Shown here: positions 25,886-58,673 of the stretch, in pieces | Layout: the number at the start of each line of letters is the position of its first letter | Numbering within the stretch: the first letter of the stretch is position 1 | Source of the DNA: a virus | Lineage: Duplodnaviria > Heunggongvirae > Uroviricota > Caudoviricetes | Length of the DNA: 64,000 bases | Direction: 5' to 3' (one strand) | Virus record (IMG/VR): IMGVR_UViG_3300045004_000084 | Translations under genes and position numbers: made by a program | Notes under the pieces: model-generated | Told to the model about the DNA's origin: nothing | Databases searched by the model: none | The model's input: the letters and a program-made list of their open reading frames with translations, nothing else

Positions 25886-26398
25886 CTATACACGGGGTTT
25901 GTTCGGATCCCCGGCTAACAAAGTCCTCATGTTTTGCCCGCCCCGTGCCAAATCGGCTACCGCTGCCAGACCAGGCAGTCCGGCGTACCCGGCGATCCCC
26001 TTCGTTACCGGCTGCATCGCTCCCATGAACTGCCCGATCTGCTCGGGCTTGATGTTCTGGAGAAAACCGAGCATCCCGCCGGTCGGATCAGCGTCCGGGG
26101 CGGGTGGCGCCGGTGGCGGCTGGGGTACAGGCGCAGGGGGCGGAACCGGGGGCGGAACCGGGGGCGGAACAGCCGCCCGAGCCGGTGAAGGCGTCGGCAC
26201 CGGCGGTGGAACCGGCGGTGGAACCGGCGGCTTAGGCGGCGCCGGACGGGGCGCCGGAGCCGGCATCGGCGGCGGCTTAGGCATCGTTGGAGCCGTCGGT
26301 CCGGCGGGTCCGCCAGTCACCTTCGGCGGAACAGGATTAGGCCCCTTCGGATTGACGCCTTCGGCCGCCAACTTCGCCAGCATAATCTCGAGTTTCAC
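25886..26398 (-). CDS. Proline-rich protein (170 aa; PPVPPPVPPP tracts)
   Basis: ORF whose start overlaps the beta'C gene end by 4 nt. Confidence 0.4.
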   Translation of the reverse strand: MKLEIMLAKLAAEGVNPKGPNPVPPKVTGGPAGPTAPTMPKPPPMPAPAPRPAPPKPPVPPPVPPPVPTPSPARAAVPPPVPPPVPPPAPVPQPPPAPPAPDADPTGGMLGFLQNIKPEQIGQFMGAMQPVTKGIAGYAGLPGLAAVADLARGGQNMRTLLAGDPNKPRV

Positions 26399-28314
26399 AG
26401 CACCCCTCCCCCCATTGACGGCTCGATAAACGGTTTGACTTCCTTGACATCGAAGCCCTTCACCTTGCCCTTCTGCCCGAAGTTCGTCGGATTAGCGAGA
26501 GCGGGTACGAACGACGTACCCTCAGGGTCGGACACGGCGCCACGGTGTACACTCTTCGTCAAAGACTTCTCCAAGTTCGAGCCGAGCATACGGGTCATCC
26601 AGTCCGGGTCGTACTGCAGACTGTCGAGTCCGCGTACGAAGTGCGGCTCGAACGGTGGTTTTTCATCGTGGACGACCAGATCCTTGATGCCGAACGCCTC
26701 CATGTCCTTGAGCATCGAAGGCGTCACACGAGTGCCGACAGTGTGATGCAGAACGGGCTTCTCGAGGTACTTGCCCACGGCCGTCTTGTAGGACATCGTT
26801 CGAGCTCCGTCCCGAGGTCGGTATGTGCGCTCGAACACGTCGTACGGAATCACGTCGTCGGGCAAGTATTCGCCCACCTCGTCGTTGAGACGGACGTGGT
26901 TGATGAGGCCACGGGCCAGGATCTCGATGTTCCGCCGGTGGCCGCCCATGCCGGCGTTCCGCATCCCGACGCGAAACGCGTCCATGAACAGTCGACGAGC
27001 CTCGCCGATGCCCTTGTGGCGGGTCACCTGGTCGGGGTTCACCAGACCGTCGGTCAGAGGGTCGCCGGCCTCGACCGAGTCGCCGACCTTGTACTTCACC
27101 TCGGCGTCCGGGCCGGCGTAGTGCTTCACCCCGTTGACGAAGACGAAGTTACCGCCGGCCGGCGCCTTCTCGATGGCCGAGACGATCCCGTCTTTCTGCG
27201 CGTGGGTCGCCCAGTACGGACTGGTCTTCGGGCTCTGCACGAGCTGGTTCAGGTACTTGAACCCGCTCACCGACTTCGACGCCCCGGCCACGCCGCCGGA
27301 GTGCTTGCTGGACAAGCCGCCCTGGCTGATCGGTTCGGACAGCGCCTGCACGGCGGCGATGCCGACCACGTCGCCCTTCGGCGGCAGCCCGCCCCGCTCG
27401 CGGACCCCGACGTCGCGGGCGTACAGGCCGCCGTCCGGGGCTCCGGTCGCGACGGGGGAGCGGACCAGGATGCGGCCGATGCCCTTCGCCTTCAGGTCCC
27501 TCAACACCCGTGGGGTGAGAACGGTGTTCCGCTTGTACGGCCCGAAGTCACGAGCCAGAAGAGCTCCCTCGTTGTCCGCGTCGTCGGTGTCCACCGGCAG
27601 GCCCCGCCCGACGAGTCGCTGATCGTCATCGTCGTCCTTCGCGGTGATCAGCAGCCGGTGACCGATCTGGTTCAACTGCTTGGAGAAGAACCCGGCGTCC
27701 TGGGTGGCGAACTTGGTGTCGGCCACGCCCTTGCGGGCGCCGAACGCCCCCGCGAAGTACTCGGCCGGGGACAGGCCCTTCGAGTACGAGTTGAGGATCG
27801 GGATGGGAATCGGGTTGTCGTGGTGGTCGGTGTACAGGAGGTCGCCGCCACGCAGCGACTTCAGGTTCATAGGCTTCCCACGGGAGCCGGACATGACCTG
27901 CATGGCGAGCGGGTTCTTCTCGGCCTTCGACTCCTCGAAGATCTCGCCCTCCAGACGCTGTTGGTGCTGCATGAGCATGTGGACGATGGCCTTCTGCTTG
28001 GCCGCGTCGTCCAGAGTCGGCGAGGCGAGGATCTGGTCGAGGTTGGTTTGCAGTTCGGTGCGGGCGTTCGCCATCGCCTTCGAGCCCCGCAGGGCCTTCA
28101 GGCCGAAGCTGTACCCGCCGGTGTAATACGCCACGTCGCGGCCGATGTCGGACAGCCGCTTCGCCACGTCCCGGTACTTGTCCGGGTGCTTCTCGGCGAC
28201 CTGCTGCATGAGCGCGGCCAGGCCCTTCCCGTCGAGGGGCCGCTCGTAGTCGCGGAGCTCTTCGGGAAGGGCCTCGTTCACCAAGATTTGACCAGCAGTA
28301 GCACGCAGCGGCAT
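26395..28314 (-). CDS. DNA-directed RNA polymerase beta' subunit, C-terminal module (bridge helix + trigger loop), as a separate 639-aa polypeptide
   Basis: 'GAFGARKGVADTKFATQDAGFFSKQLNQIGHRLLITAKDDDD' aligns to the beta' bridge helix ('[29 protein letters not shown]'). 'GIAAVQALSEPISQGGLSSKHSGGVAG' aligns to the trigger loop ('[27 protein letters not shown]'). Confidence 0.85.
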   Translation of the reverse strand: MPLRATAGQILVNEALPEELRDYERPLDGKGLAALMQQVAEKHPDKYRDVAKRLSDIGRDVAYYTGGYSFGLKALRGSKAMANARTELQTNLDQILASPTLDDAAKQKAIVHMLMQHQQRLEGEIFEESKAEKNPLAMQVMSGSRGKPMNLKSLRGGDLLYTDHHDNPIPIPILNSYSKGLSPAEYFAGAFGARKGVADTKFATQDAGFFSKQLNQIGHRLLITAKDDDDDQRLVGRGLPVDTDDADNEGALLARDFGPYKRNTVLTPRVLRDLKAKGIGRILVRSPVATGAPDGGLYARDVGVRERGGLPPKGDVVGIAAVQALSEPISQGGLSSKHSGGVAGASKSVSGFKYLNQLVQSPKTSPYWATHAQKDGIVSAIEKAPAGGNFVFVNGVKHYAGPDAEVKYKVGDSVEAGDPLTDGLVNPDQVTRHKGIGEARRLFMDAFRVGMRNAGMGGHRRNIEILARGLINHVRLNDEVGEYLPDDVIPYDVFERTYRPRDGARTMSYKTAVGKYLEKPVLHHTVGTRVTPSMLKDMEAFGIKDLVVHDEKPPFEPHFVRGLDSLQYDPDWMTRMLGSNLEKSLTKSVHRGAVSDPEGTSFVPALANPTNFGQKGKVKGFDVKEVKPFIEPSMGGGVL

Positions 28315-42113: not shown

Positions 42114-42134
42114 GACGGGATCACCTTCCGTGAT

Positions 42135-42162
42135 TGCCGGCACGCCGTTGAGTTGGTAGAAT
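42135..42162 (+). promoter_or_regulatory. Sigma70-like promoter for the RNR gene: TTGCCG - 16 bp - TGgTAGAAT (extended -10)
   Basis: Plus-strand sequence aTTGCCGgcacgccgttgagtTGgTAGAATgacc, about 75 nt upstream of the ATG at 42237. It is divergent from the minus-strand promoter, back to back. Confidence 0.4.
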
Positions 42163-42236
42163 GACCACTTGCCGAGACCGGTTAGGTTGGCCGGTCAACA
42201 CTTCTGTCGGGACATGACGATCAGTCAGAGGGAGTT

Positions 42237-44522
42237 TTGCCCATGAGTGCTACTACGCGCTCCGTGGGTGGTGACGCTGTTGTCGCCACCCGTACCCTGG
42301 TGGTCAAGAGGGACGGCCGCAAAGTGCCGTTCGACTCCACCAAGATCAGAAGCGCCGTGGCGCGCTGTCTGATGAACGGAGTTAAGTTCTCAGAGGCCGA
42401 CGCATTCGGCGTCGGCAAGGACATCGCGGACGCGGTCGCCAAGATCGTGGCCCGCCGCGCCGAACGGGAGATGGGCGTCGAGGACGTCCAGCAGCTCGTG
42501 ATCCAGCAGCTCTGGGCGGCCGACTTCTTCAAGGCCGCCGAGCACTACACGATCTACCGGGAAAATCGGCGGGTGGCACGCGAGTCGCGACCCATCAACC
42601 CCGAACTCGAACGTCGAGTCCAAGAAGACGCGAAGCACTTCCCGAACCCGATCCAGTACTACCAGTTCATCTCCAAGTTCGCGCGGTGGCGCGAAGAAGA
42701 AGGCCGCCGAGAGACGTGGCGGGAAGCCTGCACCCGCGTGATGGACTTCTTCAAACGGCAGCCGCAACTGTCGGCCGTAGTTACCGATGACGAGTGGTAC
42801 GAGCTCGACACCTACCTGTACGAACAGAAGGCGAGCTGCGCCATGCGCGTCCTGCAGATGGCCGGGCCGGCGCTCGACCGCTGCAACGTCGGCGTCTACA
42901 ACTGCTCGTACCTGCCGATCGTGGACTGGTTCTCGTTCGCCGAGTTGCTCTACATCCTCATGCAAGGCACCGGGGCCGGATTCTCGGTCGAGGTCGATTA
43001 CGTCGAACAGCTCCCTCGCATCCGCCGCCAGCGGAAGGGCGCCCCCAAACACCACTTCCAGATCGAAGACAGCACCGAGGGTTGGTGCGACGCGCTGTTC
43101 TTCGGCCTGCAGAAGTGGTCGATGGGCGAGGACGTGGAGTTCGACTACTCGCTCGTCCGTCCCGAAGGCGCGCGGCTGAAAACCAAAGGCGGGCGAGCCA
43201 GTGGCCCCGAACCGCTCAAGACGCTGCTCGAGTTCGCCCGCAAGCTCGTCCTGAGCCGCCAGGGCACTTACATGACCGACCTCGATTGCCACGACCTGGC
43301 CTGCATGACCGGCAAGATCGTGCAAGTGGGCGGCGTACGTCGGGCCAGCCTGATCTCGCTGTCGGACCTCGACAGCAAGAACATGCGGGACTGCAAGAGC
43401 GGCAACTGGTGGCAGAACGACCTGCACCGCATGATGGCAAACAACTCGGCGGTGTACAACGAGAAGCCGAGCGCTATCCAGTTCATGGAAGAGTGGTTGG
43501 CCCTCGCGAAGTCGGGGACCGGCGAGCGCGGCATCTTCAACCGCAGCGGCGTCGAACGTATGCTGCCCAAGCGGCGGAAGAAGCACCGGTTCGGGTGCAA
43601 CCCGTGCGCGGAAATCATCCTCCGCGCCTACCAGTTCTGCAACCTGACGATCGCCGTGGCCCGCCACGACGACACACCGGAGACGCTCAAGAAGAAGGTC
43701 CGCATCGCCGCCATCTTCGGCACGCTACAAGCCAGCCTCACCAACTTCAAGTACATCCGCGAGGACTGGAAGAAGAACTGCGAAGAAGAGGCGCTGCTCG
43801 GCGTCGACATCACCGGGCACATGGACTGTCCGCTCCTGCGACCGGGAGCCCCCGGTCGAGAGGCACTGATGCAAGAGTTCAAGGCAATCGTGGCCGAGGT
43901 CAACTCGGTTTGGGCCGACCGCATCGGCATCAACCGCTCGGCCAGCGACACCTGCATCAAGCCGTCGGGCGACAGCTCGGCGTTCTTCTGGTGCGGCAGC
44001 GGGATCCACGCCTGGTTCAACGACTTCTTCATCCGTCGCACCCGAGAGAAGGGCGACAGCCCGGTGGCGAAGATGCTGAAGGACGCCGGTGTGCCGTGGA
44101 TCCCGGCGCCGGAGGACGCCTCACTGGTCGCGTTCGAATGGCCCTGCAAGCCGGCCGGTGAAGGAGCCCCGACCCGGAAGGACATGTCCGCGATCGAGCA
44201 GTTGGAGAACTGGCTGTCGTGGAAGAAGAACTTCGCCGAGCACTCGGTGAGCTGCACCGTCTACATCGAGCCGCACGAGTGGTTCGCCGCCGGGCAGTGG
44301 GTGTACGAGCACTTCGACGACATCTCGGGCATCAGCTTCCTGCCCCGGGACAACGGGAAGTACACCGGAACTCCGTACGAGGACATGACGAAGGCCGAGT
44401 ACGAAAAGCGACTGGAGGAGTTCCCGGAGATCAACTGGGCCAAGCTGATGCGCTACGAAACCGAGGACGGCACCGAGAGCGGCCGGACGTTCGCCTGCGG
44501 GGCCAACGGCTGCGAGCTGTGA
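42237..44522 (+). CDS. Ribonucleotide reductase catalytic subunit with an N-terminal ATP-cone. Probably class II (adenosylcobalamin-dependent, NrdJ-like), because no small-subunit gene is adjacent
   Basis: ATP-cone signature 'VVKRDGRKVPFDSTKIRSAVARC'. Active-site region 'GCNPCAEIIL' (the N-P-C-x-E motif of RNRs). C-terminal redox Cys pair 'CGANGCEL'. Confidence 0.85.
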   Translation: MPMSATTRSVGGDAVVATRTLVVKRDGRKVPFDSTKIRSAVARCLMNGVKFSEADAFGVGKDIADAVAKIVARRAEREMGVEDVQQLVIQQLWAADFFKAAEHYTIYRENRRVARESRPINPELERRVQEDAKHFPNPIQYYQFISKFARWREEEGRRETWREACTRVMDFFKRQPQLSAVVTDDEWYELDTYLYEQKASCAMRVLQMAGPALDRCNVGVYNCSYLPIVDWFSFAELLYILMQGTGAGFSVEVDYVEQLPRIRRQRKGAPKHHFQIEDSTEGWCDALFFGLQKWSMGEDVEFDYSLVRPEGARLKTKGGRASGPEPLKTLLEFARKLVLSRQGTYMTDLDCHDLACMTGKIVQVGGVRRASLISLSDLDSKNMRDCKSGNWWQNDLHRMMANNSAVYNEKPSAIQFMEEWLALAKSGTGERGIFNRSGVERMLPKRRKKHRFGCNPCAEIILRAYQFCNLTIAVARHDDTPETLKKKVRIAAIFGTLQASLTNFKYIREDWKKNCEEEALLGVDITGHMDCPLLRPGAPGREALMQEFKAIVAEVNSVWADRIGINRSASDTCIKPSGDSSAFFWCGSGIHAWFNDFFIRRTREKGDSPVAKMLKDAGVPWIPAPEDASLVAFEWPCKPAGEGAPTRKDMSAIEQLENWLSWKKNFAEHSVSCTVYIEPHEWFAAGQWVYEHFDDISGISFLPRDNGKYTGTPYEDMTKAEYEKRLEEFPEINWAKLMRYETEDGTESGRTFACGANGCEL

Positions 44523-44551
44523 TCGTCTGATGGCTAAAGAAAAGCCGGGCG

Positions 44552-44575
44552 GCCCGGGGAGCGATCCCCGGGCCG
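44552..44575. terminator. Bidirectional intrinsic terminator hairpin between convergent genes (RNR and the 44614-45018 gene)
   Basis: ggcccgggg-agcgat-ccccgggcc forms a 9-bp GC stem. On the minus strand it is followed by GCTTTTCTTTAG, and on the plus strand by GTTCGCTTTG. Confidence 0.5.
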
Positions 44576-51847: not shown

Positions 51848-52857
51848 TTTTTGTCCCCGCCATTGTCCTCCTTCTTGTTCTCCTTCGACCCGTCCTTCGG
51901 ATCGGGCTTGTTAACGCCCACCCCGGCCCGATTGGCGATCTGACGGGCGTCGTGGCGACGCTTCGCCCCGCCCAGAGCCGTCGCGGTCGCATTCGTCACG
52001 TCGTCGACGTACAGTCCGGGCTCAAGCCCGTCAGCCAGGTCGACACCGAGACCGCCCTCGTCGGCTCTGATAGCAAGGCCGAGCGGAGTATTCGACAGGA
52101 CCGCCATCGTCGGGCTCGTGGCCTTGCTGGCGGCGTTACGCTGAAGGATCCGCAGGTCCAGGGCCGACAGCGGTCCACCGACGAGGGGATTGAGCAGCCA
52201 CTGGACCTTGTGACGCTGCTCGTTGTACCGGTTGCCGGCCAGCAGCTTGTCTATCGCCAGCACCCGAGCGGACTGGTCGACGGCGTACGGCCCGTCGGCC
52301 TTGAAGATGCCGGCCTTCTTCTCCTTCTTGCCGCCCTTCTCGTCGTCCTGCTTGGCAAGCTGTTCGTACAGAGCGGCCTCGGCCTTGTCCGACTCGGGCT
52401 CGAACTCGTAGGGGGCAATGCGATCCTGGTACAGGCCCCGGGCCTTGTCCTGCCGCTTCGATCCGCCGGCAATCGCCGCCGCAGGAGCGCCGACCAGTGA
52501 CAACGGATTGAGAGGGAACGCGCCGCTGAGGATCCGGAAAGTCGGACTGGTAGCCCTACTGGCGTTCACCCGGCGGTCGAACCGGTAACCGACCTCCGAC
52601 AGCGGCCCGCTAACGAACGGGTTGAGCCAGTAGTGGAACGGATGCTTCTTGCGATTGCGGGCCAGAGCCTGGATGATTTGGTCGTCGGCTGCCACGTCGG
52701 CTGCCGAGTCGGCGGTGTACGCCCCCAGGGAAGCCGCCATCTTCATCACGGCCTTGTCCGAACACGGCTTTTTCTGCCGGGCTTTCTGCCCGTCCGTCCG
52801 GACCTCTTTCGCCGAGATCAGGAACGACAGCTTCATCATCGCATTCGTCTTGCTCAT
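51844..52857 (-). CDS. Protein (337 aa) with N-terminus MSKTNAMMKL (shared with the next gene) and two internal about 55-aa repeats (…WLNPFVSGPLSE… / …WLLNPLVGGPLSA…). Unknown
   Basis: ORF with protein-like composition. ATGA overlap with the downstream gene. Confidence 0.45.
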   Translation of the reverse strand: MSKTNAMMKLSFLISAKEVRTDGQKARQKKPCSDKAVMKMAASLGAYTADSAADVAADDQIIQALARNRKKHPFHYWLNPFVSGPLSEVGYRFDRRVNASRATSPTFRILSGAFPLNPLSLVGAPAAAIAGGSKRQDKARGLYQDRIAPYEFEPESDKAEAALYEQLAKQDDEKGGKKEKKAGIFKADGPYAVDQSARVLAIDKLLAGNRYNEQRHKVQWLLNPLVGGPLSALDLRILQRNAASKATSPTMAVLSNTPLGLAIRADEGGLGVDLADGLEPGLYVDDVTNATATALGGAKRRHDARQIANRAGVGVNKPDPKDGSKENKKEDNGGDKK

Positions 52858-53016
52858 ACGATCTCCTGCTTCTTCTTATTCTTCTGGTTCCGCCACGGGG
52901 CAGGGCCGAGCACCTTGTCGGCAATGGGATCCTTCGTTCGCATCAGCAACTGCGACAACCCGTACGCGCCGGTTGCCGTTCCCACTGCAGGCATGATCGA
53001 CGACTCGGTGTCCGGA

Positions 53017-53097
53017 CCTTGTACCCGGCGACGATCGCCTCGTGGTGCTCGAGGTCGATGCGGCGCTCCAGTACTCTGGTATTGCAGGATCAGGTCC
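53017..53097. repeat. 81-bp copy (order B-A) of a segment of the 53902-54405 gene. It is the circularly permuted partner of 54159-54237 (order A-B)
   Basis: A = tctggtattgcaggatcaggtcc. B = (cc)ttgtacccggcgacgatcgcctcgtggtgctcgaggtcgatgcggcgctccagtac. The copies are identical base for base. Confidence 0.85.
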
Positions 53098-53368
53098 AGT
53101 AGCAGTTCCCCGGCTCGTACCCAAGCTCGTTTCTGCGCCTCTCCAGGGCGTGCCCCGGCGGCCTCAGCCCCATGTCCTCCAAGAAGGCCGTGAAACTGTT
53201 CCGCCACCTCGGACAGACGCGTATCCCGCGACCGCCGTAGTCCTTGTACTGCTTGTGCTTCTTTCTCTCGCAGCGCTCCACCATCGCCCGCCAGGAGTTG
53301 TACTCCGGCGTCCCGACCTTGCGGTGCTGCTCCCGACTTTTCTTCGGTCTTGGTCGTTGAGTTTTCAT
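53090..53368 (-). CDS. Small HNH-family homing-endonuclease-like protein (92 aa) of the phage 'GGRGI-VC-RW ... YEPGNC-W' family
   Basis: 'EYNSWRAMVERC...YKDYGGRGIRVCPRWRNSFTAFLEDMGLRPPGHALERRRNELGYEPGNCYWT' is the conserved block of small phage proteins usually annotated as HNH endonuclease. Real-protein composition, unlike the overlapping frame. Confidence 0.6.
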   Translation of the reverse strand: MKTQRPRPKKSREQHRKVGTPEYNSWRAMVERCERKKHKQYKDYGGRGIRVCPRWRNSFTAFLEDMGLRPPGHALERRRNELGYEPGNCYWT

Positions 53369-53888
53369 ACAGCACTCCTTTCTTTCGTACCGCGATGGTA
53401 GCGTGAAAAGGGTGCTTGGGGAAGGGCGTCAGGCCGTAGCTCTTCCGGAGCATAGCCAGATCGGGGCTGGCGATCTCGATGAACCACACCTTCGACATCT
53501 CCGGCCAGCCGGCCGGCTCGACCTCCTTGATAGGCCCCAGCGTGTAACGGAAGTGGTGACCCCACTCGTGGACCTTGTCGGCCCCGCCGATCTGGTCGAG
53601 CTCTTCGGGTCGGAACACAGAAACATGGCCGTTGAGACGGCCGTCTCTGAGAGGAAGCTGCGCCCCGTGCTCGTCGAGGGCGTCGAACGCGCCGCGAATC
53701 AGCGCGTTGGGGACCTTGAGAAGGCCCCAACCAGAACTGGATAGCTGAAGCTCGCCGCTGAGTGCGTGTACTTTGACGGCGTCGCCGCCGGCCTTGTACA
53801 TGAGGCCCACGGCCTCGCCCGTCTCGTAGCGGCTACGGGCGATCTCGGCGACGGTCTTGTAGAACGGGCGGGTCAGACTGGGGAACAT
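53367..53888 (-). CDS. 2H phosphoesterase (LigT / cyclic-nucleotide phosphodiesterase-like) domain. The annotated ORF continues without a stop to 52854, but that extension looks spurious
   Basis: Two H-x-T/S-x motifs ('NGHVSVF' at about residue 88 and 'FHATIAV' at about residue 162) at the spacing typical of LigT. The domain ends exactly where the HNH-like ORF begins. Confidence 0.5.
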
Positions 53889-53901
53889 CCGTGTCCTCCG
53901 G

Positions 53902-54405
53902 TCACGCGGCAGTGGTCGACTCCGGTGGGCTCGCTTGCCCGACGCTGCCCTTGAGCTCGGCCAGCTCCGCCTTCAGCTCGTGCAGCTCGGCCTGCTGGGC
54001 GTCGTACCGCCCCTGCATGGCGTCGTACCGCTCCTGCATGGCCCTGCCATCTGCTTCGCACTTCTCGTGGTTCTTCGCCAGAATGTCGAACTTGATCGAC
54101 AGGGCGTCGAACTTATCCCGCAGGTCGATGACCTCTTTGCGAGCCAGATCGCGGGCACTCTGGTATTGCAGGATCAGGTCCTTGTACCCGGCGACGATCG
54201 CCTCGTGGTGCTCGAGGTCGATGCGGCGCTCCAGTACCTCGATCCTCTTCTCTTCGACCTCGACCCTGTCGGCTTCAACGTCCACCTTCTTCTCGCGGAC
54301 CACGTTGCGACTGCGACCGATCAGATAGGCGGAGACGGCCGTCGCCAGGGCGCCGAAGCCGCCGATGAGGAGGCCACCGATCGAAAGCAGAGTCGAGGTG
54401 TCCAT
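53902..54405 (-). CDS. Membrane-anchored coiled-coil protein (167 aa): N-terminal TM helix then a long heptad-repeat region. Spanin-like or SPFH-partner-like architecture
   Basis: 'LLSIGGLLIGGFGALATAVSAYLIG' is a TM segment. The rest is E/R/K/L-rich coiled coil. A GGAGG RBS lies 8 nt upstream. It contains the A-B copy of the permuted repeat (54159-54237). Confidence 0.5.
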   Translation of the reverse strand: MDTSTLLSIGGLLIGGFGALATAVSAYLIGRSRNVVREKKVDVEADRVEVEEKRIEVLERRIDLEHHEAIVAGYKDLILQYQSARDLARKEVIDLRDKFDALSIKFDILAKNHEKCEADGRAMQERYDAMQGRYDAQQAELHELKAELAELKGSVGQASPPESTTAA

Positions 54406-54435
54406 GGCAGCCTCCGTGCCGCTGAGACAGGTTAA

Positions 54436-54468
54436 GGAAAAAGAGCCCCGGGCAAAGAGCCGGGGCTC
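54436..54468 (-). terminator. Intrinsic terminator (minus strand) located only about 30 nt upstream of the 53902-54405 start codon
   Basis: gagccccgg-gcaaagag-ccggggctc forms a 9-bp stem. The minus-strand tail is TTTTTCC. Confidence 0.55.
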
Positions 54469-54811
54469 ATTGTGGGCCGCCGAGGGGTCGGCGCTCTCCG
54501 GATCCCCTACCCGGAGTCCGTCTCCCGCCTTGCGGGCAAGAGAGTCGGGGCGGAAACGAGTGCGTCCGCCGCCTCCACCTGCTGCGTCGGACGGCTTTCG
54601 CCAGGACGCAGGTTCCCGTCACAGCCGCAGTCGTCCTAACCGTAGCCATGACTCCTAACCGGTCGGCACTCACGACCAGCGCCGGGTTCTCACCTCGGCG
54701 ACCCACGAGGTTTAGTATCGCCGAACGAGGCCGAAGAGTCCAGCCCGTGATCAGAGTGCCCGCGTTCTAGAAGAAAGTGAATTCGTGCTGATGTGAGAAC
54801 GGAGCTTGGCA

Positions 54812-54839
54812 TTGACAGCGCTGGACGCTAGAATAATCA
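54812..54839 (+). promoter_or_regulatory. Sigma70-like element TTGACA - 16 bp - TAATCA on the plus strand (TAGAAT overlaps at a shorter spacing) in an AT-richer intergenic stretch
   Basis: attgacagcgctggacgctagaataatcag. Perfect -35 but a weak -10. No plus-strand gene follows. Confidence 0.3.
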
Positions 54840-54858
54840 GCGTCCACCACTCCTCCGC

Positions 54859-54912
54859 CCCACCAGGGTGCGTTCCCGGCGCACAACCTACCCTGGTGGG
54901 GCTTCTCTTTTT
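54859..54912 (+). terminator. Plus-strand intrinsic terminator-like structure (long imperfect hairpin plus a U tract)
   Basis: cccaccagggt-[gtgcgttcccggcgcac aaccta]-accctggtggg followed by GCTTCTCTTTTT. It overlaps the stop of the minus-strand SPFH gene. Confidence 0.45.
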
Positions 54913-55492
54913 ACACAGGCGCCGGACGCTGGATCGACGACCCGATCGCCGCCGGATCGGTCAACAGTCGGACGGTCGGACCCCGGAAGAAGTTGTTGAG
55001 CCTGAGCGAGACCACGTTGAGGCCGAACTGCCCGATCTCGTTGTTGACGGCAATCCGGATCCGATCCCGCACGGCTGCCCACTCGGCGCGGTCTTCGGGC
55101 ATGATCTGGTCCCAGCTCAGCCGGGCCATCTCCTCGGCGATCACCGATGCGGCGATCTCCTGAACGGTTTCGGTGTAGTGGCCCAACTTGAGGTACGCAG
55201 CCGACGCGTCGGTCACGACCACGCTGACGCTGGCACTGAACGTAAGAGCGGATCCGTCGCTGAGCATCACGTTCTGCAGGCTCAGCGTGTAGACATCAGG
55301 AACGGTCGATACCGTGCGGACGTCGCACAGCCAGGGGACGACGAGCTTTAGCCCCGGGCGAACCTGAAACCGGTACTTGCCGGCCACGAAGTACAGGCCG
55401 ACCTCCCACGCCCACACGACCCTGAAGGGTATCATGTGCCCGGCGATCTCGATCAGTTTCAGAATGAGATCGCTCACGGCAGTTACCCCCAT
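54911..55492 (-). CDS. SPFH/band-7 (stomatin/prohibitin/HflKC-like) domain protein (193 aa)
   Basis: 'LKLVVPWLCDVRTVSTVPDVYTLSLQNVMLSDGSALTFSASVSVVVTDASAAYLKLGHYTETVQEIAASVIAEEMARLSWDQI' follows the SPFH core pattern. Confidence 0.55.
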   Translation of the reverse strand: MGVTAVSDLILKLIEIAGHMIPFRVVWAWEVGLYFVAGKYRFQVRPGLKLVVPWLCDVRTVSTVPDVYTLSLQNVMLSDGSALTFSASVSVVVTDASAAYLKLGHYTETVQEIAASVIAEEMARLSWDQIMPEDRAEWAAVRDRIRIAVNNEIGQFGLNVVSLRLNNFFRGPTVRLLTDPAAIGSSIQRPAPV

Positions 55493-55495
55493 AGG

Positions 55496-56125
55496 CTAAC
55501 CGACCATCGAGGCTATCTCCGCCAGCAGTGAAGGCACGTCGAACGCACCCTCGGGGCTGATCTCTTTCTTCCGCTTGTTCCACGAGCGCGGCACCAGAAC
55601 GGCCAGCCCGCCCTCGGCCACGAACCGTTCGCAGTTGGTGTCGTTGTCGTCGACCAAGATCTTCGACGGAGACGCCAGCAAATGCTTGTCGACTCCAGTG
55701 AAGAAACGCCTGCTATAGTCGGGCAGGTGGGCCTCGACCCACCGCCGCTTGCCGTCGAAAATCCCGTCGTACGGCATCGGCGCAGTCAGCAGCCCGATCC
55801 TCTTGCTGGTGATCAGCCTCTCGACGCCTGCGAGTAGCTCGAACCCGTCGCGGCAGCGCTCGAGACTGGCCCAGAACCGGGTGTCCAGCGGCCTCCAGAA
55901 CTCAGGGTCGTTTACGCCGTCGAAGCTCATGGCGGTGACGAAATCCCAAGGCACCTCAGTCACCGGCATCGAAAACCCGTAATGGACAAAAGCCCCTTTG
56001 ACGAAGTTTGCCAGAACCCCGTCCATGTCGAACAGAACCGACCTCTTCACGACGGCCTCCGTAAGTTGTCGATGAGCATCAGCACCGAGCCCGCCACGAA
56101 CAGTAGCGAGCCGGCGATGTAACAC
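55496..56125 (-). CDS. HAD-superfamily 5'(3')-deoxyribonucleotidase-like phosphatase
   Basis: Motif I 'VLFDMDGVLANF' (DxDG). Motif IV region 'ILVDDND'. Size about 200 aa. Confidence 0.65.
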   Translation of the reverse strand: MLHRRLATVRGGLGADAHRQLTEAVVKRSVLFDMDGVLANFVKGAFVHYGFSMPVTEVPWDFVTAMSFDGVNDPEFWRPLDTRFWASLERCRDGFELLAGVERLITSKRIGLLTAPMPYDGIFDGKRRWVEAHLPDYSRRFFTGVDKHLLASPSKILVDDNDTNCERFVAEGGLAVLVPRSWNKRKKEISPEGAFDVPSLLAEIASMVG

Positions 56126-56144
56126 AGCAGAGCCGCGCGGACCA

Positions 56145-56504
56145 TCACTTCCTCCGGTACCGCACCACCGTGATCACCTCGCCAGGAGAGAAGCCGGGGT
56201 AGGCGGCTTCCATCTTCGACAGCAAGGCGTAGTAGCTGCGAGCTTCCGTGCAGGCGTTGGTAGCCACGTCTTTGGCGGTCACCTGGTCGAACGCCAGGAC
56301 TTCCACCGAAACGACCTCACCCTCGAACTCGAACTTCTGATCTGCGGGACACGTTCCCGAGTGGACCCGAATGGTATCCCCCGGACGCAGGTCCGCCCAC
56401 TTGGTGCCGCATCGAGCGGTCGTTACGACCGTATTCGGCGGCACATCGGGAACAAAGTGGTTGAACAGGTCCCGCTTCACCGGTCGTGGCTGTCGCCACC
56501 CCAC
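56145..56504 (-). CDS. Small protein (119 aa), possibly a PUA/ASCH-like beta-barrel. Unknown
   Basis: ORF with protein-like composition. Confidence 0.4.
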   Translation of the reverse strand: MGWRQPRPVKRDLFNHFVPDVPPNTVVTTARCGTKWADLRPGDTIRVHSGTCPADQKFEFEGEVVSVEVLAFDQVTAKDVATNACTEARSYYALLSKMEAAYPGFSPGEVITVVRYRRK

Positions 56505-56585
56505 TTCTTGTCCTGGTAGTCCCGTTCCTGCGACACCTCGGCCAGAACCTTCTCGCGACCAGTCATGACAACCTCGTGTTAGAGT

Positions 56586-57860
56586 TCAAACCCTTGCCCG
56601 GATCTTCATCGTCTTGAGGCCCTTTCCGTCCGGAGGCCACACGTCTTCCGCTGACAGGCGCCAGCGATGCGTGATGCCGTGCTTCGGATGGACGCCGAAC
56701 AGGAGCTGTCCGGGTGCGACGGCGTCACCGAACGAGTGAACGCCGAACTCCTGCGGGCCGATCAGCGGCGGATTGATAATGTACTCGCCGCCGGCGTTTT
56801 CGATAGAGCCGTGGACATGGAAATGCCCGAACAGCCAGTAATCGACGGGCCGGAAGTGTTTGGCAAGGACCGCCCCGAGCCGTGAAGTCATGCGGTTGAT
56901 TCCGTAGAACGGGATCGAGTTCCACGATTTGATGAAGTGCCCGTGGCCCTGGTAGAACAGCTTGCCCTCGAGCTCGTACATCACAGCCCAGGCGTCGGGA
57001 ACCTCTACCTGGACGTTCGGGCAGTCGGCCAGGAGGGCGGCGGCGTACTCGTACACCAGATAGTCCCAGCTACGAGTCGGATCTTTCGTCTGGACCTTTC
57101 GGGCGTCGCCCAGACGCCCGTGGTTGCCCGGAGTGCCGAACACATAGATCCGCTCGAAGTGGGCTGACAGGTCGCGTACCACAGACGCGAACACCTGACC
57201 GCACCGAAGGGCCGTCTGCATCACGTTGGGGCCGTCGGTGTGACGCTCGACTTCGTGAATCGTGCCGGAGACCATGTCGCCGTTGGCCGCGATCACCAGG
57301 TTCGGGAACCGGTAGCCGCCCGACTCCAGGCGGGTCTTGATGTCCACCGTGGCGTGAACGATTCGGGCCGACCGTCGGTCCATCACCTCGCGGTCGTACT
57401 CGTTGAGCCCGAAGACGTTCTCGGACCGAACGATTTCGTCGGCATGCCAGTCGGACAGATTGAGGACCATCGACTCGGTGACGGCGTTCTTGCCGGCGAC
57501 GATCGGTCTGTACTGGGGCGGCGGCTCGAGCCTGTTGACGGCTTCTGTTATGGCCCCCCGGACAACGTCACGAAAAGCCAGTTCCCGGACTGCGTCGATG
57601 TGTTCTCTGCGCTCGCGCTGGCGAGCGGCGCGCTCGCGTTCGGCGTCCACCGGGTCAGAAAGTTGTGAAGTTTCAGTTGATGCTGGGCTTGGAGTTGAAG
57701 TGGATTTGCTTTTCTGTCCGACCAGACCTAGTTCTCGGCGGCACTCAGTGATGAGCCAGTCCGAGACCTGCATTTTTGCTTTGATGCGGCCGTAGGTCCA
57801 ACCGGCCCGCAGGAGCTCCAGAACGCGCTCTCTCTTACCATCGCCGACAGACGTCGACAT
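56586..57860 (-). CDS. Calcineurin-like metallophosphoesterase (Mre11/SbcD-type nuclease family) with an N-terminal helix-turn-helix domain
   Basis: N-terminus 'RERVLELLRAGWTYGRIKAKMQVSDWLITECRRELGL' is HTH-like. Phosphoesterase motifs 'LSDWHADE', 'GNHG' and 'GHFHVHG'. An AAAGGAGGT RBS is present. Confidence 0.6.
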   Translation of the reverse strand: MSTSVGDGKRERVLELLRAGWTYGRIKAKMQVSDWLITECRRELGLVGQKSKSTSTPSPASTETSQLSDPVDAERERAARQRERREHIDAVRELAFRDVVRGAITEAVNRLEPPPQYRPIVAGKNAVTESMVLNLSDWHADEIVRSENVFGLNEYDREVMDRRSARIVHATVDIKTRLESGGYRFPNLVIAANGDMVSGTIHEVERHTDGPNVMQTALRCGQVFASVVRDLSAHFERIYVFGTPGNHGRLGDARKVQTKDPTRSWDYLVYEYAAALLADCPNVQVEVPDAWAVMYELEGKLFYQGHGHFIKSWNSIPFYGINRMTSRLGAVLAKHFRPVDYWLFGHFHVHGSIENAGGEYIINPPLIGPQEFGVHSFGDAVAPGQLLFGVHPKHGITHRWRLSAEDVWPPDGKGLKTMKIRARV

Positions 57861-57917
57861 TGGTTGACCTCCTTTCTTGGAGTTGAGCCGGGCATCCTGC
57901 CCCTAGCCGTTTCTACC

Positions 57918-58673
57918 CTAAAAGCGTTTCCACGACAACGCGAGTTCACGAACGACCGTGCCGGTTCTAGAATGTCGTCCGTGAACTCTTCTTGGGGGAT
58001 AGGTCAATGAAGACGAAGATTCAGAATCTGGGAGCCTTCGCCGTGTTCCGCTTCGAGGGACGTCGACCAGTTTTCCGCCGAACCACAGGATCGAGCTCGG
58101 CTTCACGCCCGGAAGCAAGTACGGACCGCCCTCCGGCTTCGCCATCACCAGTTCGATGAGCTCGTGCATCGGTCGCAGTAGGCGGTTGCTGACGAAACAC
58201 ACCGGATTGTCCTTGCGGTCGCTCGTGGTCTGCCACTTGCCCTTCTGCTTGGCCTCGTAGAACGGCAGCCAGCCGTGGAGTATGACCGTCTTACTGCTGG
58301 GCACCCAGACGGCGTGGACGCCGATGTCGGTGTCCTTGTCGTCCGCCCGGGCCATGTACTGGTAGAACCTTTCGGTCCGGGTGCGGACGACAATCCCGCC
58401 GCCGCTGATCTGCGGGGTCTTCCGGAAGTCGAGGCACACCACGTTGTAGTGTCGGCCGAGCAGCTTCGCCGTCTGCTGCGGCCCGAACACGCCGGCTTCG
58501 TGGTAGAGCAGCCCGGTCGTGTCGTTCTTGTCGTTCGGGTTGGGCACGAGCCCGTACGCGTCAAGGAGGTTGAGTTCTTTGGCCTGCTCCTGGCGCAGCT
58601 TGGCGAGCGCGCCGTAGACCACCATCTCGGCCTCGCTGACAGTCATGACGACGGGTTCGGGTTGCTGGTTCAC
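57918..58673 (-). CDS. Protein of unknown function (251 aa). The C-terminal about 45 residues (R/S-rich) may be read-through junk
   Basis: ORF with protein-like composition for about 200 aa. Confidence 0.4.
   Translation of the reverse strand: MNQQPEPVVMTVSEAEMVVYGALAKLRQEQAKELNLLDAYGLVPNPNDKNDTTGLLYHEAGVFGPQQTAKLLGRHYNVVCLDFRKTPQISGGGIVVRTRTERFYQYMARADDKDTDIGVHAVWVPSSKTVILHGWLPFYEAKQKGKWQTTSDRKDNPVCFVSNRLLRPMHELIELVMAKPEGGPYLLPGVKPSSILWFGGKLVDVPRSGTRRRLPDSESSSSLTYPPRRVHGRHSRTGTVVRELALSWKRF
57945..57990. promoter_or_regulatory. Operator-like 13-bp inverted repeat flanking a TTCTAGAA palindrome, about 85-130 nt upstream of the HTH-phosphoesterase gene
   Basis: GTTCACGAACGAC-cgtgccgg-TTCTAGAA-t-GTCGTCCGTGAAC. 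The arms are complementary with 1 mismatch. TTCACG-17-TAGAAT also reads as a promoter on the plus strand. Confidence 0.4.

Follow-up and report, generated by a model that had tools for sequence, protein, structure and literature searches.

The stretch of DNA considered here, positions 54,406 to 54,912 of a 64,000-nucleotide (nt) piece of the Caudoviricetes record IMGVR_UViG_3300045004_000084 (the whole piece is referred to as the window), separates two genes read from the minus strand and harbours, on that same strand, a structured RNA that we call RNA B. The window is a phage-like contig with a G+C content of 0.632, and nearly all of its genes lie on the minus strand. Between the stop codon of an SPFH/Band-7 gene (54911-54913) and the ATG of the next minus-strand gene (54405-54403) there are 505 nt, and the gene starting at 54405 encodes a 167-amino-acid protein with a hydrophobic N-terminal helix and a coiled coil, that is, a membrane-anchored product. 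Three parts make up the 505 nt: RNA B (54437-54752, minus strand), a deletion scar with the 3' remnant of a csrA gene (54765-54796), and a short unit on the plus strand, hereafter unit A (54806-54912). A preliminary description of the stretch had regarded it as a non-coding gap, which holds for the entire 505 nt: the open reading frames (ORFs) within it are not conserved, and frame-breaking indels occur among relatives. The same description had treated it as a single unit and as the most AT-rich non-coding segment of the window. The former view gives way to separate elements on both strands plus a deletion scar, and the latter does not hold, as the stretch has a G+C content of 0.640 and 63 % of 505-nt windows are lower. 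Folded as RNA and compared with shuffled sequences, the minus strand of the stretch reaches z = -5.4 and the plus strand z = -3.3.

The same locus occurs in identical form on several metagenome contigs. Related loci were collected through homologues of the coiled-coil protein (ten loci, 45-74 % identity) and through a DNA pattern drawn from the alignment (one further copy), while a more distant sub-clade, L155 and L156, came from a profile built on the CsrA protein encoded next door; the comparison set thus comprises 13 distinct sequences, namely the window and 12 related phage loci. Using the SPFH protein, the coiled-coil protein and the coiled-coil alignment as queries on viral contigs yielded one extra contig only. 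Two specific DNA patterns of the locus matched none of 185,579 reference genomes, with no host or prophage copy among them, and in viral and metagenome contigs they matched the same phage clade only, so that B appears to be an element of a small group of uncultured phages. Likewise, blastn of the locus against a collection of cultured phages gave no match. A looser DNA pattern, GGTTAGGA..GGTTAGGA, was discarded, since in viral contigs it returned at least 120 chance stretches, none of them homologous among the matches listed.

RNA B, a structured element of the minus strand

RNA B extends over approximately 315 nt (54437-54752), from the start of a conserved block (GAUCACGGGCUGGACUC) to the end of a terminator U-tract, and has homologues in the 12 other loci with nhmmer E-values of 1e-63 to 1e-118. 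Its DNA is 86-93 % identical to that of locus L007, compared with 63-77 % for the coiled-coil coding sequence and 73-86 % for the csrA coding sequence, and its minimum free energy lies at z = -4.2. A protein-coding reading was ruled out, because no reading frame is open throughout the homologues and indels of 1-2 nt fall inside the core (alignment columns 77, 94-95, 143 and 306).

The core domain of B spans about 235 nt (54472-54706) and was delineated by RNAalifold and pair counts, as were its closing helix (54691-54706 with 54472-54485) and a second helix (54678-54684 with 54489-54495). Six hairpins radiate from one junction, GAAA and GCAA tetraloops among them. In the 13-sequence alignment 98.6 % of the cells are standard pairs, and 18 pairs (62 cells) have changed on both sides, against 9.8 ± 1.6 pairs (19.6 ± 3.8 cells) in shuffled controls, none of which reached the observed value in 500 trials; sliding the partners by 1-3 columns left 1-5 doubly changed pairs. 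Furthermore, the pairs are 97.7 % canonical when read on the minus strand but 85.3 % on the opposite strand, with G-U pairs accounting for 12.8 % of the cells. Because canonical pairing and tolerance of G-U pairs hold on one strand alone, B is an RNA of the minus strand of the window.

One arm of the core (54611-54660) carries two GGUUAGGA motifs 22 nt apart, one as AGGA within an internal loop (54653-54656) and one as AGGAC at the apex (54633-54637). The shape of this arm is retained even where its stems have been fully re-written between sub-clades (GUCACGGCU/GGCUGUGAC versus GCUUCC/GGAAGC), and in the apical loop GGA stays constant as the rest varies (UAGGAC, AUGGAU, AAGGAU, UAGGAUG). A junction segment GCAGGU together with the near-invariant hairpin GGAGGNGGCGGACGCACUCGUUUCCGCCCC (54544-54582) has undergone almost no substitution in the 13 sequences, and B as a whole contains invariant stretches of 30-40 nt. 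The 5' part (54707-54752) is conserved in sequence (CUGGACUC, AUCGGCGAUACU) without a supported helix. A long-range pairing between this 5' region and the Shine-Dalgarno (SD) sequence of the coiled-coil gene, predicted from 11 sequences, showed no compensatory change and was dropped, as the prediction with 13 sequences placed a local hairpin at the SD instead.

At its 3' end B closes with an intrinsic terminator (54437-54468), composed of a stem-loop (54443-54468) and a U-tract (54437-54442), which follows the core domain after 3 nt and lies 30 nt before the SD. It had been described beforehand as a textbook terminator, and deservedly so: a 9-bp stem with 8 GC pairs is followed by UUUUUCC, the hairpin is worth -20.7 kcal/mol (z = -4.7 against shuffled sequences), and it is kept, with two compensatory pairs, in 10 of the 13 sequences. 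At gathering thresholds Rfam 15 returned no riboswitch or other family in the whole window or in five relatives; the best permissive matches in 54300-55000 were terminator-only likenesses of 15-22 bits, against cut-offs of 50-112, and ARAGORN detected neither a tRNA nor a tmRNA gene in the whole window. RNA B is a real, conserved and structured RNA element of the minus strand that lies outside the described families. The broadest suggestion of the preliminary description, a structured RNA, leader or non-coding RNA (ncRNA) ending in a terminator, is thereby upheld by a covariation-supported structure in 13 loci.

The csrA cassette, its partial deletion and unit A

In 12 of 12 relatives a csrA gene (64-72 amino acids) adjoins B on the opposite strand, in divergent orientation, and is placed between A and B. 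Its product falls into Pfam family PF02599 and the PHROG 'CsrA-like regulator' (E = 4e-18); that of L007, for instance, has 68 amino acids (MLVITRREGEKIHVGKDVV...). The distance between the csrA and coiled-coil starts is 441-472 nt in 11 of the 12 relatives and is filled by B. In L156 the gene caller leaves 312 nt, as it sets the coiled-coil start inside B, with the conserved ATG further downstream. Outside the phage clade, the best-scoring CsrA carries the label 'Planctomycetaceae bacterium' and matches 77 % of the query at 64 % identity, a weak hint at a planctomycete host. We also noted a hairpin-embedded CAAGGACG on the csrA strand within the csrA coding sequence (codons ~14-19, VGKDVV) of L007 (3491), L128 (4491), L131 (4484) and L142 (3633), which may serve CsrA autoregulation or may simply follow from the encoded protein.

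Aligned with L007, the window lacks about 280 bp that take in almost the whole of csrA together with the conserved divergent promoter region. Pairwise alignment with L007 and a 12-sequence alignment place the junction at a TTCTAGAA palindrome (54765-54772); the palindrome had been reported before, and is present, but its position had been wrongly given as 54767-54774. Adjacent to it, the last ~8 codons and the stop of csrA persist on the plus strand (54773-54796, aligned to the csrA 3' ends of relatives), and the csrA 3' region and its terminator hairpin survive within 54773-54912. The ancestral context of B is a phage csrA cassette, which has been partly deleted in the window phage.

A second rearrangement scar is found at 57965-58075 (plus strand), where a remnant of the gene located after csrA in relatives (its first ~17 codons, the full product having 129-143 amino acids; KIQNLGAFAVFRFEGR; tblastn E = 4e-5) is preceded by TTCACG-17-TAGAAT and by a TTCTAGAA palindrome at 57965-57972, without a hairpin. 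A 251-amino-acid ORF (57918-58673) apparently overruns this remnant. Because of the second scar, the block of ~3.1 kb at 54911-57960, with the SPFH, an NT5C-like, a 119-amino-acid and a 424-amino-acid exonuclease-like gene, looks as if it had been inserted into the former csrA cassette.

A scan for sigma70-type promoters found none for B in the window. Since the U-tract of the hairpin at 54857-54902 is confined to the opposite strand, we infer that B would be produced in the window phage via read-through from the SPFH operon. In relatives, the divergent region between csrA and B is highly conserved (A2 alignment columns 60-104; L007 3580-3625) and contains an inverted repeat, CGCACG...CGTGCG. 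Read by eye and not picked up by the scan tool, -10-like hexamers of the two strands overlap there (TACAAT for csrA, TAGATG for B), an overlap that would make transcription of csrA and B mutually exclusive. Such sigma70-style reasoning may not hold for the main strand, given that the phage has an RNA polymerase of its own: a 639-amino-acid ORF (26395-28314, minus strand) matches RNA polymerase Rpb1 domain 5 (beta'-like, E = 2e-14) and shares just 24-27 % identity with RNA-polymerase subunits from large phages in culture (Salmonella Arash, Vibrio and Rhizobium phages). The window phage is part of a small clade of uncultured phages of high GC content, equipped with their own multisubunit RNA polymerase.

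Unit A is headed by a sigma70-like promoter, TTGGCA-17-TAGAAT (54806-54834, plus strand, 10 of 12 matches), the sole promoter-like site in 53500-56000, where 0.2 are expected. All relatives keep it, in the form TTGGCG/TTGGCA - 17 - TAGAAT/TAAGAT and with a TG upstream. The predicted transcript of ~70 nt (54841-54912) consists of a C/U-rich strand (CGUCCACCACUCCUCCG, with the variants CCCUUCCU and CCCCUCU), the hairpin at 54857-54902 and UUCUCUUUUU. The hairpin acts in prediction as a terminator of 13+5 bp (-33.1 kcal/mol, z = -4.8), and compensatory changes preserve it in the L132/L155/L156 sub-clade (ACCAGGG/CCCUGGU to GCCGGGG/CCCCGGC). In most relatives unit A sits between the csrA stop and the SD of the 129-143-amino-acid gene, and it could be the csrA terminator combined with an internal promoter or leader. 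It is intact in the window and in L155 as well, both of which are devoid of that downstream gene, and its retention there is compatible with a small RNA (sRNA) of ~70 nt. In 8 of 11 loci the C/U-rich 5' end of unit A finds its best predicted partner in the B hairpin at 54544-54582, with energies of -18 to -26.5 kcal/mol; with a weak seed-shuffle p of ~0.03 and other window sites scoring alike, this predicted pairing may serve as a lead.

Ribosome-site hairpins and a possible Csr-type circuit

Downstream of the terminator, the SD of the coiled-coil gene is displayed in a small hairpin, GCGGC-ACGGAG-GCUGC (54407-54423, minus strand; 54403-54423 with the ATG), in which the motif CANGGANG (54411-54418) overlaps the SD. 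The ribosome-binding site GGAGG announced in the preliminary description is indeed there, at 54415-54411. Five pairs of the hairpin are retained in 13 of 13 sequences, with a loop of ACGGAG, AUGGAG or AAGGAA, and in L155 the SD has been weakened to GGAAG, yet the CANGGANG motif and the stem stay. The arrangement is that of CsrA-repressed initiation regions, with a GGA overlapping the SD in the hairpin loop of an A(N)GGA(N)/CANGGANG consensus. We take the loop and its closing pair to be the core of the RsmE/CsrA consensus (A/U)CANGGANG(U/A), as in hcnA, a consensus that is said to go back to work by Schubert and colleagues in 2007 and by Dubey and colleagues in 2005.

This hairpin has counterparts elsewhere in the genome. 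On its coding strand the window has 11 occurrences of CANGGANG within a hairpin, as opposed to 1.35 ± 1.21 (maximum 6) in shuffled sequences and 2 on the other strand, and 8 or 9 of the 11 sites lie 5-9 nt before the ATG of a substantial ORF. On the minus strand the motifs start at 54418, 25815, 13911, 13441, 12813, 11771, 7041 and 4193, and also at 53893, 34364 and 60010. The design is a hexaloop A-N-GGA-G with a closing C-G pair and 3-5 further pairs, and it is repeated in relatives, including over the start codon of the 2H-SAK gene. The hairpin set has the look of a regulon of the CsrA type or of a translation signal peculiar to the phage.

GGA triplets are also frequent in B itself. They number 14-18 in 9 of 10 csrA-bearing relatives and 11 each in L132 and in the window, where ~6.8 would be expected, while triplets of the same composition amount to 4-10 (GAG) and 8-12 (AGG) in the 11 sequences counted. 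About 9-10 of the GGA triplets are unpaired, ~9 of them at conserved positions. Relatives that possess the terminator carry GGAG at its foot, and in several the 5' foot of the stem, ~55 nt before the SD hairpin, comes close to the consensus as CACGGAGC, where the reach of a CsrA dimer is put at about 10-63 nt; CsrA bound there could compete with formation of the terminator.

Our preferred, albeit tentative, reading is that B acts as an RNA partner or leader in a phage Csr-type circuit and works with CsrA. CsrA, phage-encoded in the relatives and supplied by the host, if at all, in the window phage, would bind the conserved unpaired GGA motifs in B and the CANGGANG hairpin over the coiled-coil SD. 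Such binding would determine how far the coiled-coil gene is translated, and perhaps also passage through the terminator and the CsrA pool left for like ribosome-site hairpins on other phage genes. A more elaborate version appears unlikely to us: it envisages a full viral Csr-like circuit with CsrA, the globular B as an RNA of a new class, the C/U-rich A as an 'anti-GGA' RNA and a regulon of hairpin-SD genes whose translation these three would time, the window phage being a natural csrA deletion that runs on host CsrA.

Several observations weigh against the involvement of CsrA in this form. Tblastn detected no csrA in the whole window, meaning that B is kept there without a phage csrA, and the window copy also lacks the GGA motif at the terminator foot (AAUGAGCC) and the one at the 5' end. 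All instances of synteny with csrA belong to a single phage clade and lack phylogenetic independence, and the other csrA-carrying viral contigs (L144-L153) have neither an adjoining large gap nor an nhmmer match to B. The candidate B promoter in relatives (TTGACT/TTGTAC - 17 - TAGATG) was read by eye and was not called by the scan tool. Regarding passage through the terminator, L132, L155 and L156 retain the RNA and the ribosome-site hairpin but miss the terminator itself, and the search for a conserved antiterminator gave none: in 6 of 10 sequences the terminator 5' arm has its best partner at columns 87-110, in the remainder the partner lies at other places, and there is no covariation. Moreover, some nine equally strong intrinsic-terminator-like hairpins are scattered over the minus strand of the window within co-directional genes, so that a terminator just before a ribosome-binding site and start is a recurrent design of this genome and not specific to the site. 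They include sites at ~61487, 48652, 47275, 46326, 45089, 38969, 15433 and 10920 (the 45-49 kb region alone has four). In some cases only 25-45 nt separate the hairpin from the following ATG, and the recurrent design hints at termination that is leaky or at a mechanism of antitermination. Finally, B is compact and organised around a junction, with GNRA tetraloops and long invariant stretches, unlike the hairpin strings of CsrB and RsmZ, an architecture that suggests a further or different partner.

It is conceivable, though we consider it somewhat improbable, that B is an autonomous ncRNA which binds the RNA polymerase of the phage or some other protein of phage or host, or which permits read-through of the many terminators in the manner of put or EAR elements, its synteny with csrA being merely inherited. 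Its compact multi-helix fold with GAAA and GCAA tetraloops and invariant segments would suit such a role, as would its position in relatives at the head of a long rightward gene array with a terminator after it, the abundance of strong terminators in a genome with its own polymerase, the survival of B after loss of csrA, and a motif density below that of CsrB-type RNAs. Nevertheless, Rfam returned no match to put, EAR or any other family, nothing ties B to the polymerase, and the conserved unpaired GGA motifs, together with the loop that keeps its GGA, would be left unexplained. Less probable still is the riboswitch-like attenuator put forward in the preliminary description, here taken as a CsrA-independent, ligand- or protein-sensing control of the coiled-coil/2H-SAK operon. 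It would account for a large closed domain that is followed at such short spacing by a strong terminator and the SD, and the 5' strand of the closing helix (GCCGGGGC) can indeed pair with the terminator 5' arm in 6 of 10 sequences; but a check for mutually exclusive terminator and antiterminator folds revealed no conserved alternative, as the place of the best partner varies by sequence and does not covary. In addition, three homologues keep the domain without the terminator, no known aptamer family is matched, terminators near start codons are common in this genome, and the downstream genes suggest no metabolite.

That B might be a sponge of the CsrB/RsmZ type, a stand-alone terminated sRNA that soaks up many CsrA dimers, we regard as quite unlikely. 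Sequestering sRNAs have been defined as intergenic, denser in AGGA/ARGGA than the genomic background, terminated in a rho-independent manner and displaying GGA in loops, and CsrB attains an AGGA/ANGGA count of 16-22 by these criteria (Kulkarni et al. 2006, PMC1488887). B is intergenic, flanked by the coiled-coil gene throughout and, on its other side, by csrA in relatives and the SPFH gene in the window; it measures about 330-370 nt, ends in most members in a rho-independent terminator, lies beside csrA and is rich in GGA, some ten of which are unpaired. Its AGGA/ANGGA count per ~370 nt, however, is 3-8 (4 in the window) against a background of 2.25 ± 1.63 (99th percentile 7, maximum 10), which puts B in the upper tail but not among the outliers, and a CsrB-like sponge was rejected by this measure, a result that also counts against our preferred reading. 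GGA is displayed by one hairpin loop and one internal loop only, most other loops being tetraloops or of invariant non-GGA sequence, the terminator is absent in 3 of 13 sequences, and B is conserved far beyond what a sponge needs. Hardly credible, in our estimation, is an absence of any RNA function, with the conservation reflecting a DNA-level element (an origin, a packaging or recombination site, a promoter or operator) or a recent common origin, and the window copy a leftover behind the terminator of the SPFH operon. The position of B between divergent genes in relatives, the rearrangement scars on either side of it in the window and the small size and close relatedness of the family would agree with this. 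Yet compensatory changes preserve the helices, including stems wholly re-written between sub-clades, the 12.8 % of G-U pairs are tolerated on one strand only, and B is more conserved than the adjoining coding sequence.

Other features of the window bear on its genes at large. Inside the called C-terminal half of the 2H-SAK phosphoesterase gene (52854-53888) lies an HNH homing-endonuclease-like ORF (53090-53368, minus strand; PHROG 3377, E = 5e-31), and just downstream of it a circularly permuted, 81-nt partial copy of the coiled-coil gene, 97-100 % identical (repeats 53011-53097 and 54157-54237). The 2H-SAK genes of relatives are longer and uninterrupted, and the ORF and repeat together suggest insertion of a mobile endonuclease. 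On the plus strand, a unit at 42127-44575 combines TTGCCG-17-TAGAAT (42127-42162) with a 761-amino-acid ORF (42237-44522) and a terminator (44550-44575). All five TAGAAT hexamers of the window are on the plus strand, which suggests that host-type promoters drive a few 'moron-like' units of the opposite strand.

Relation to known regulatory RNAs

In its logic, the B locus comes nearest to the leaders of pgaA, glgC, hcnA and others under CsrA control, whereas in size it is nearest to CsrB. From all of them it is distinct in architecture and conservation. With the CsrA-repressed leaders of E. coli (glgC, pgaA, cstA) and Pseudomonas (hcnA) it shares an untranslated leader with several GGA sites, one of which shows the SD in the loop of a short hairpin; the hairpin GGC-ACGGAG-GCU of the B locus has the same CANGGANG core as that of hcnA, with csrA alongside in relatives. 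In contrast to these leaders, the B locus contains a compact and near-invariant tetraloop domain, is mostly ended by a terminator and is viral, and its CsrA binding is putative. CsrB, CsrC and RsmX/Y/Z resemble B in being intergenic, in size (~350 nt for CsrB), in the terminator (10 of 13 sequences for B) and in enrichment of GGA (about two-fold for B), whereas B departs from them in a motif density of 3-8 versus 16-22, in a closed globular fold instead of a string of GGA-loop hairpins, and in its very high conservation. As for the conserved upstream activator site (GacA/UvrY box) of CsrB-type RNAs, B is preceded in relatives by the conserved divergent promoter region shared with csrA, which is deleted in the window.

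Riboswitches and protein-controlled attenuator leaders (T-box, TRAP or PyrR targets) are likewise large 5' domains placed right before a terminator and ribosome-binding site, but B matches no aptamer, has no conserved antiterminator and can dispense with the terminator in one sub-clade. With the processive-antitermination RNAs of phages and bacteria (putL/putR of HK022, EAR of Bacillus) B shares its place as a structured RNA heading a long phage gene array with terminators; it exceeds them considerably in size and shows no match to them in sequence or structure. The ornate ncRNAs (OLE, GOLLD, ROOL, HEARO, raiA), which also emerged from metagenomic and phage comparisons, have in common with B a length above 200 nt, multiple helices, GNRA tetraloops and strong covariation. 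B lies outside these families of Rfam 15, is smaller than GOLLD, ROOL and OLE, is found in one phage clade so far, and is tied to csrA.

Taken together, B is a new RNA family, tentatively placed within Csr-type post-transcriptional control. Alleles of csrA were previously found in 30 of 2517 phage genomes (Sobrero & Valverde 2020, PMC7366521), and 87 phage csrA records were found here. That survey gives neither a function nor an RNA partner for phage csrA (PMC7366521), and the literature searches made here brought up no report of an RNA partner. The compact fold and the near-invariant segments of B point to a specific molecular partner. Should the link with CsrA prove false, B would remain a new and well-supported family of large structured RNAs from uncultured phages. 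The locus also offers a testable system, in which a viral CsrA, a folded RNA of 315 nt encoded back-to-back with it, a C/U-rich RNA unit and genes with CsrA-type ribosome-site hairpins come together. If the link is true, B would represent a structurally new kind of CsrA-binding RNA, and a large phage with its own RNA polymerase would have captured translational control as well.

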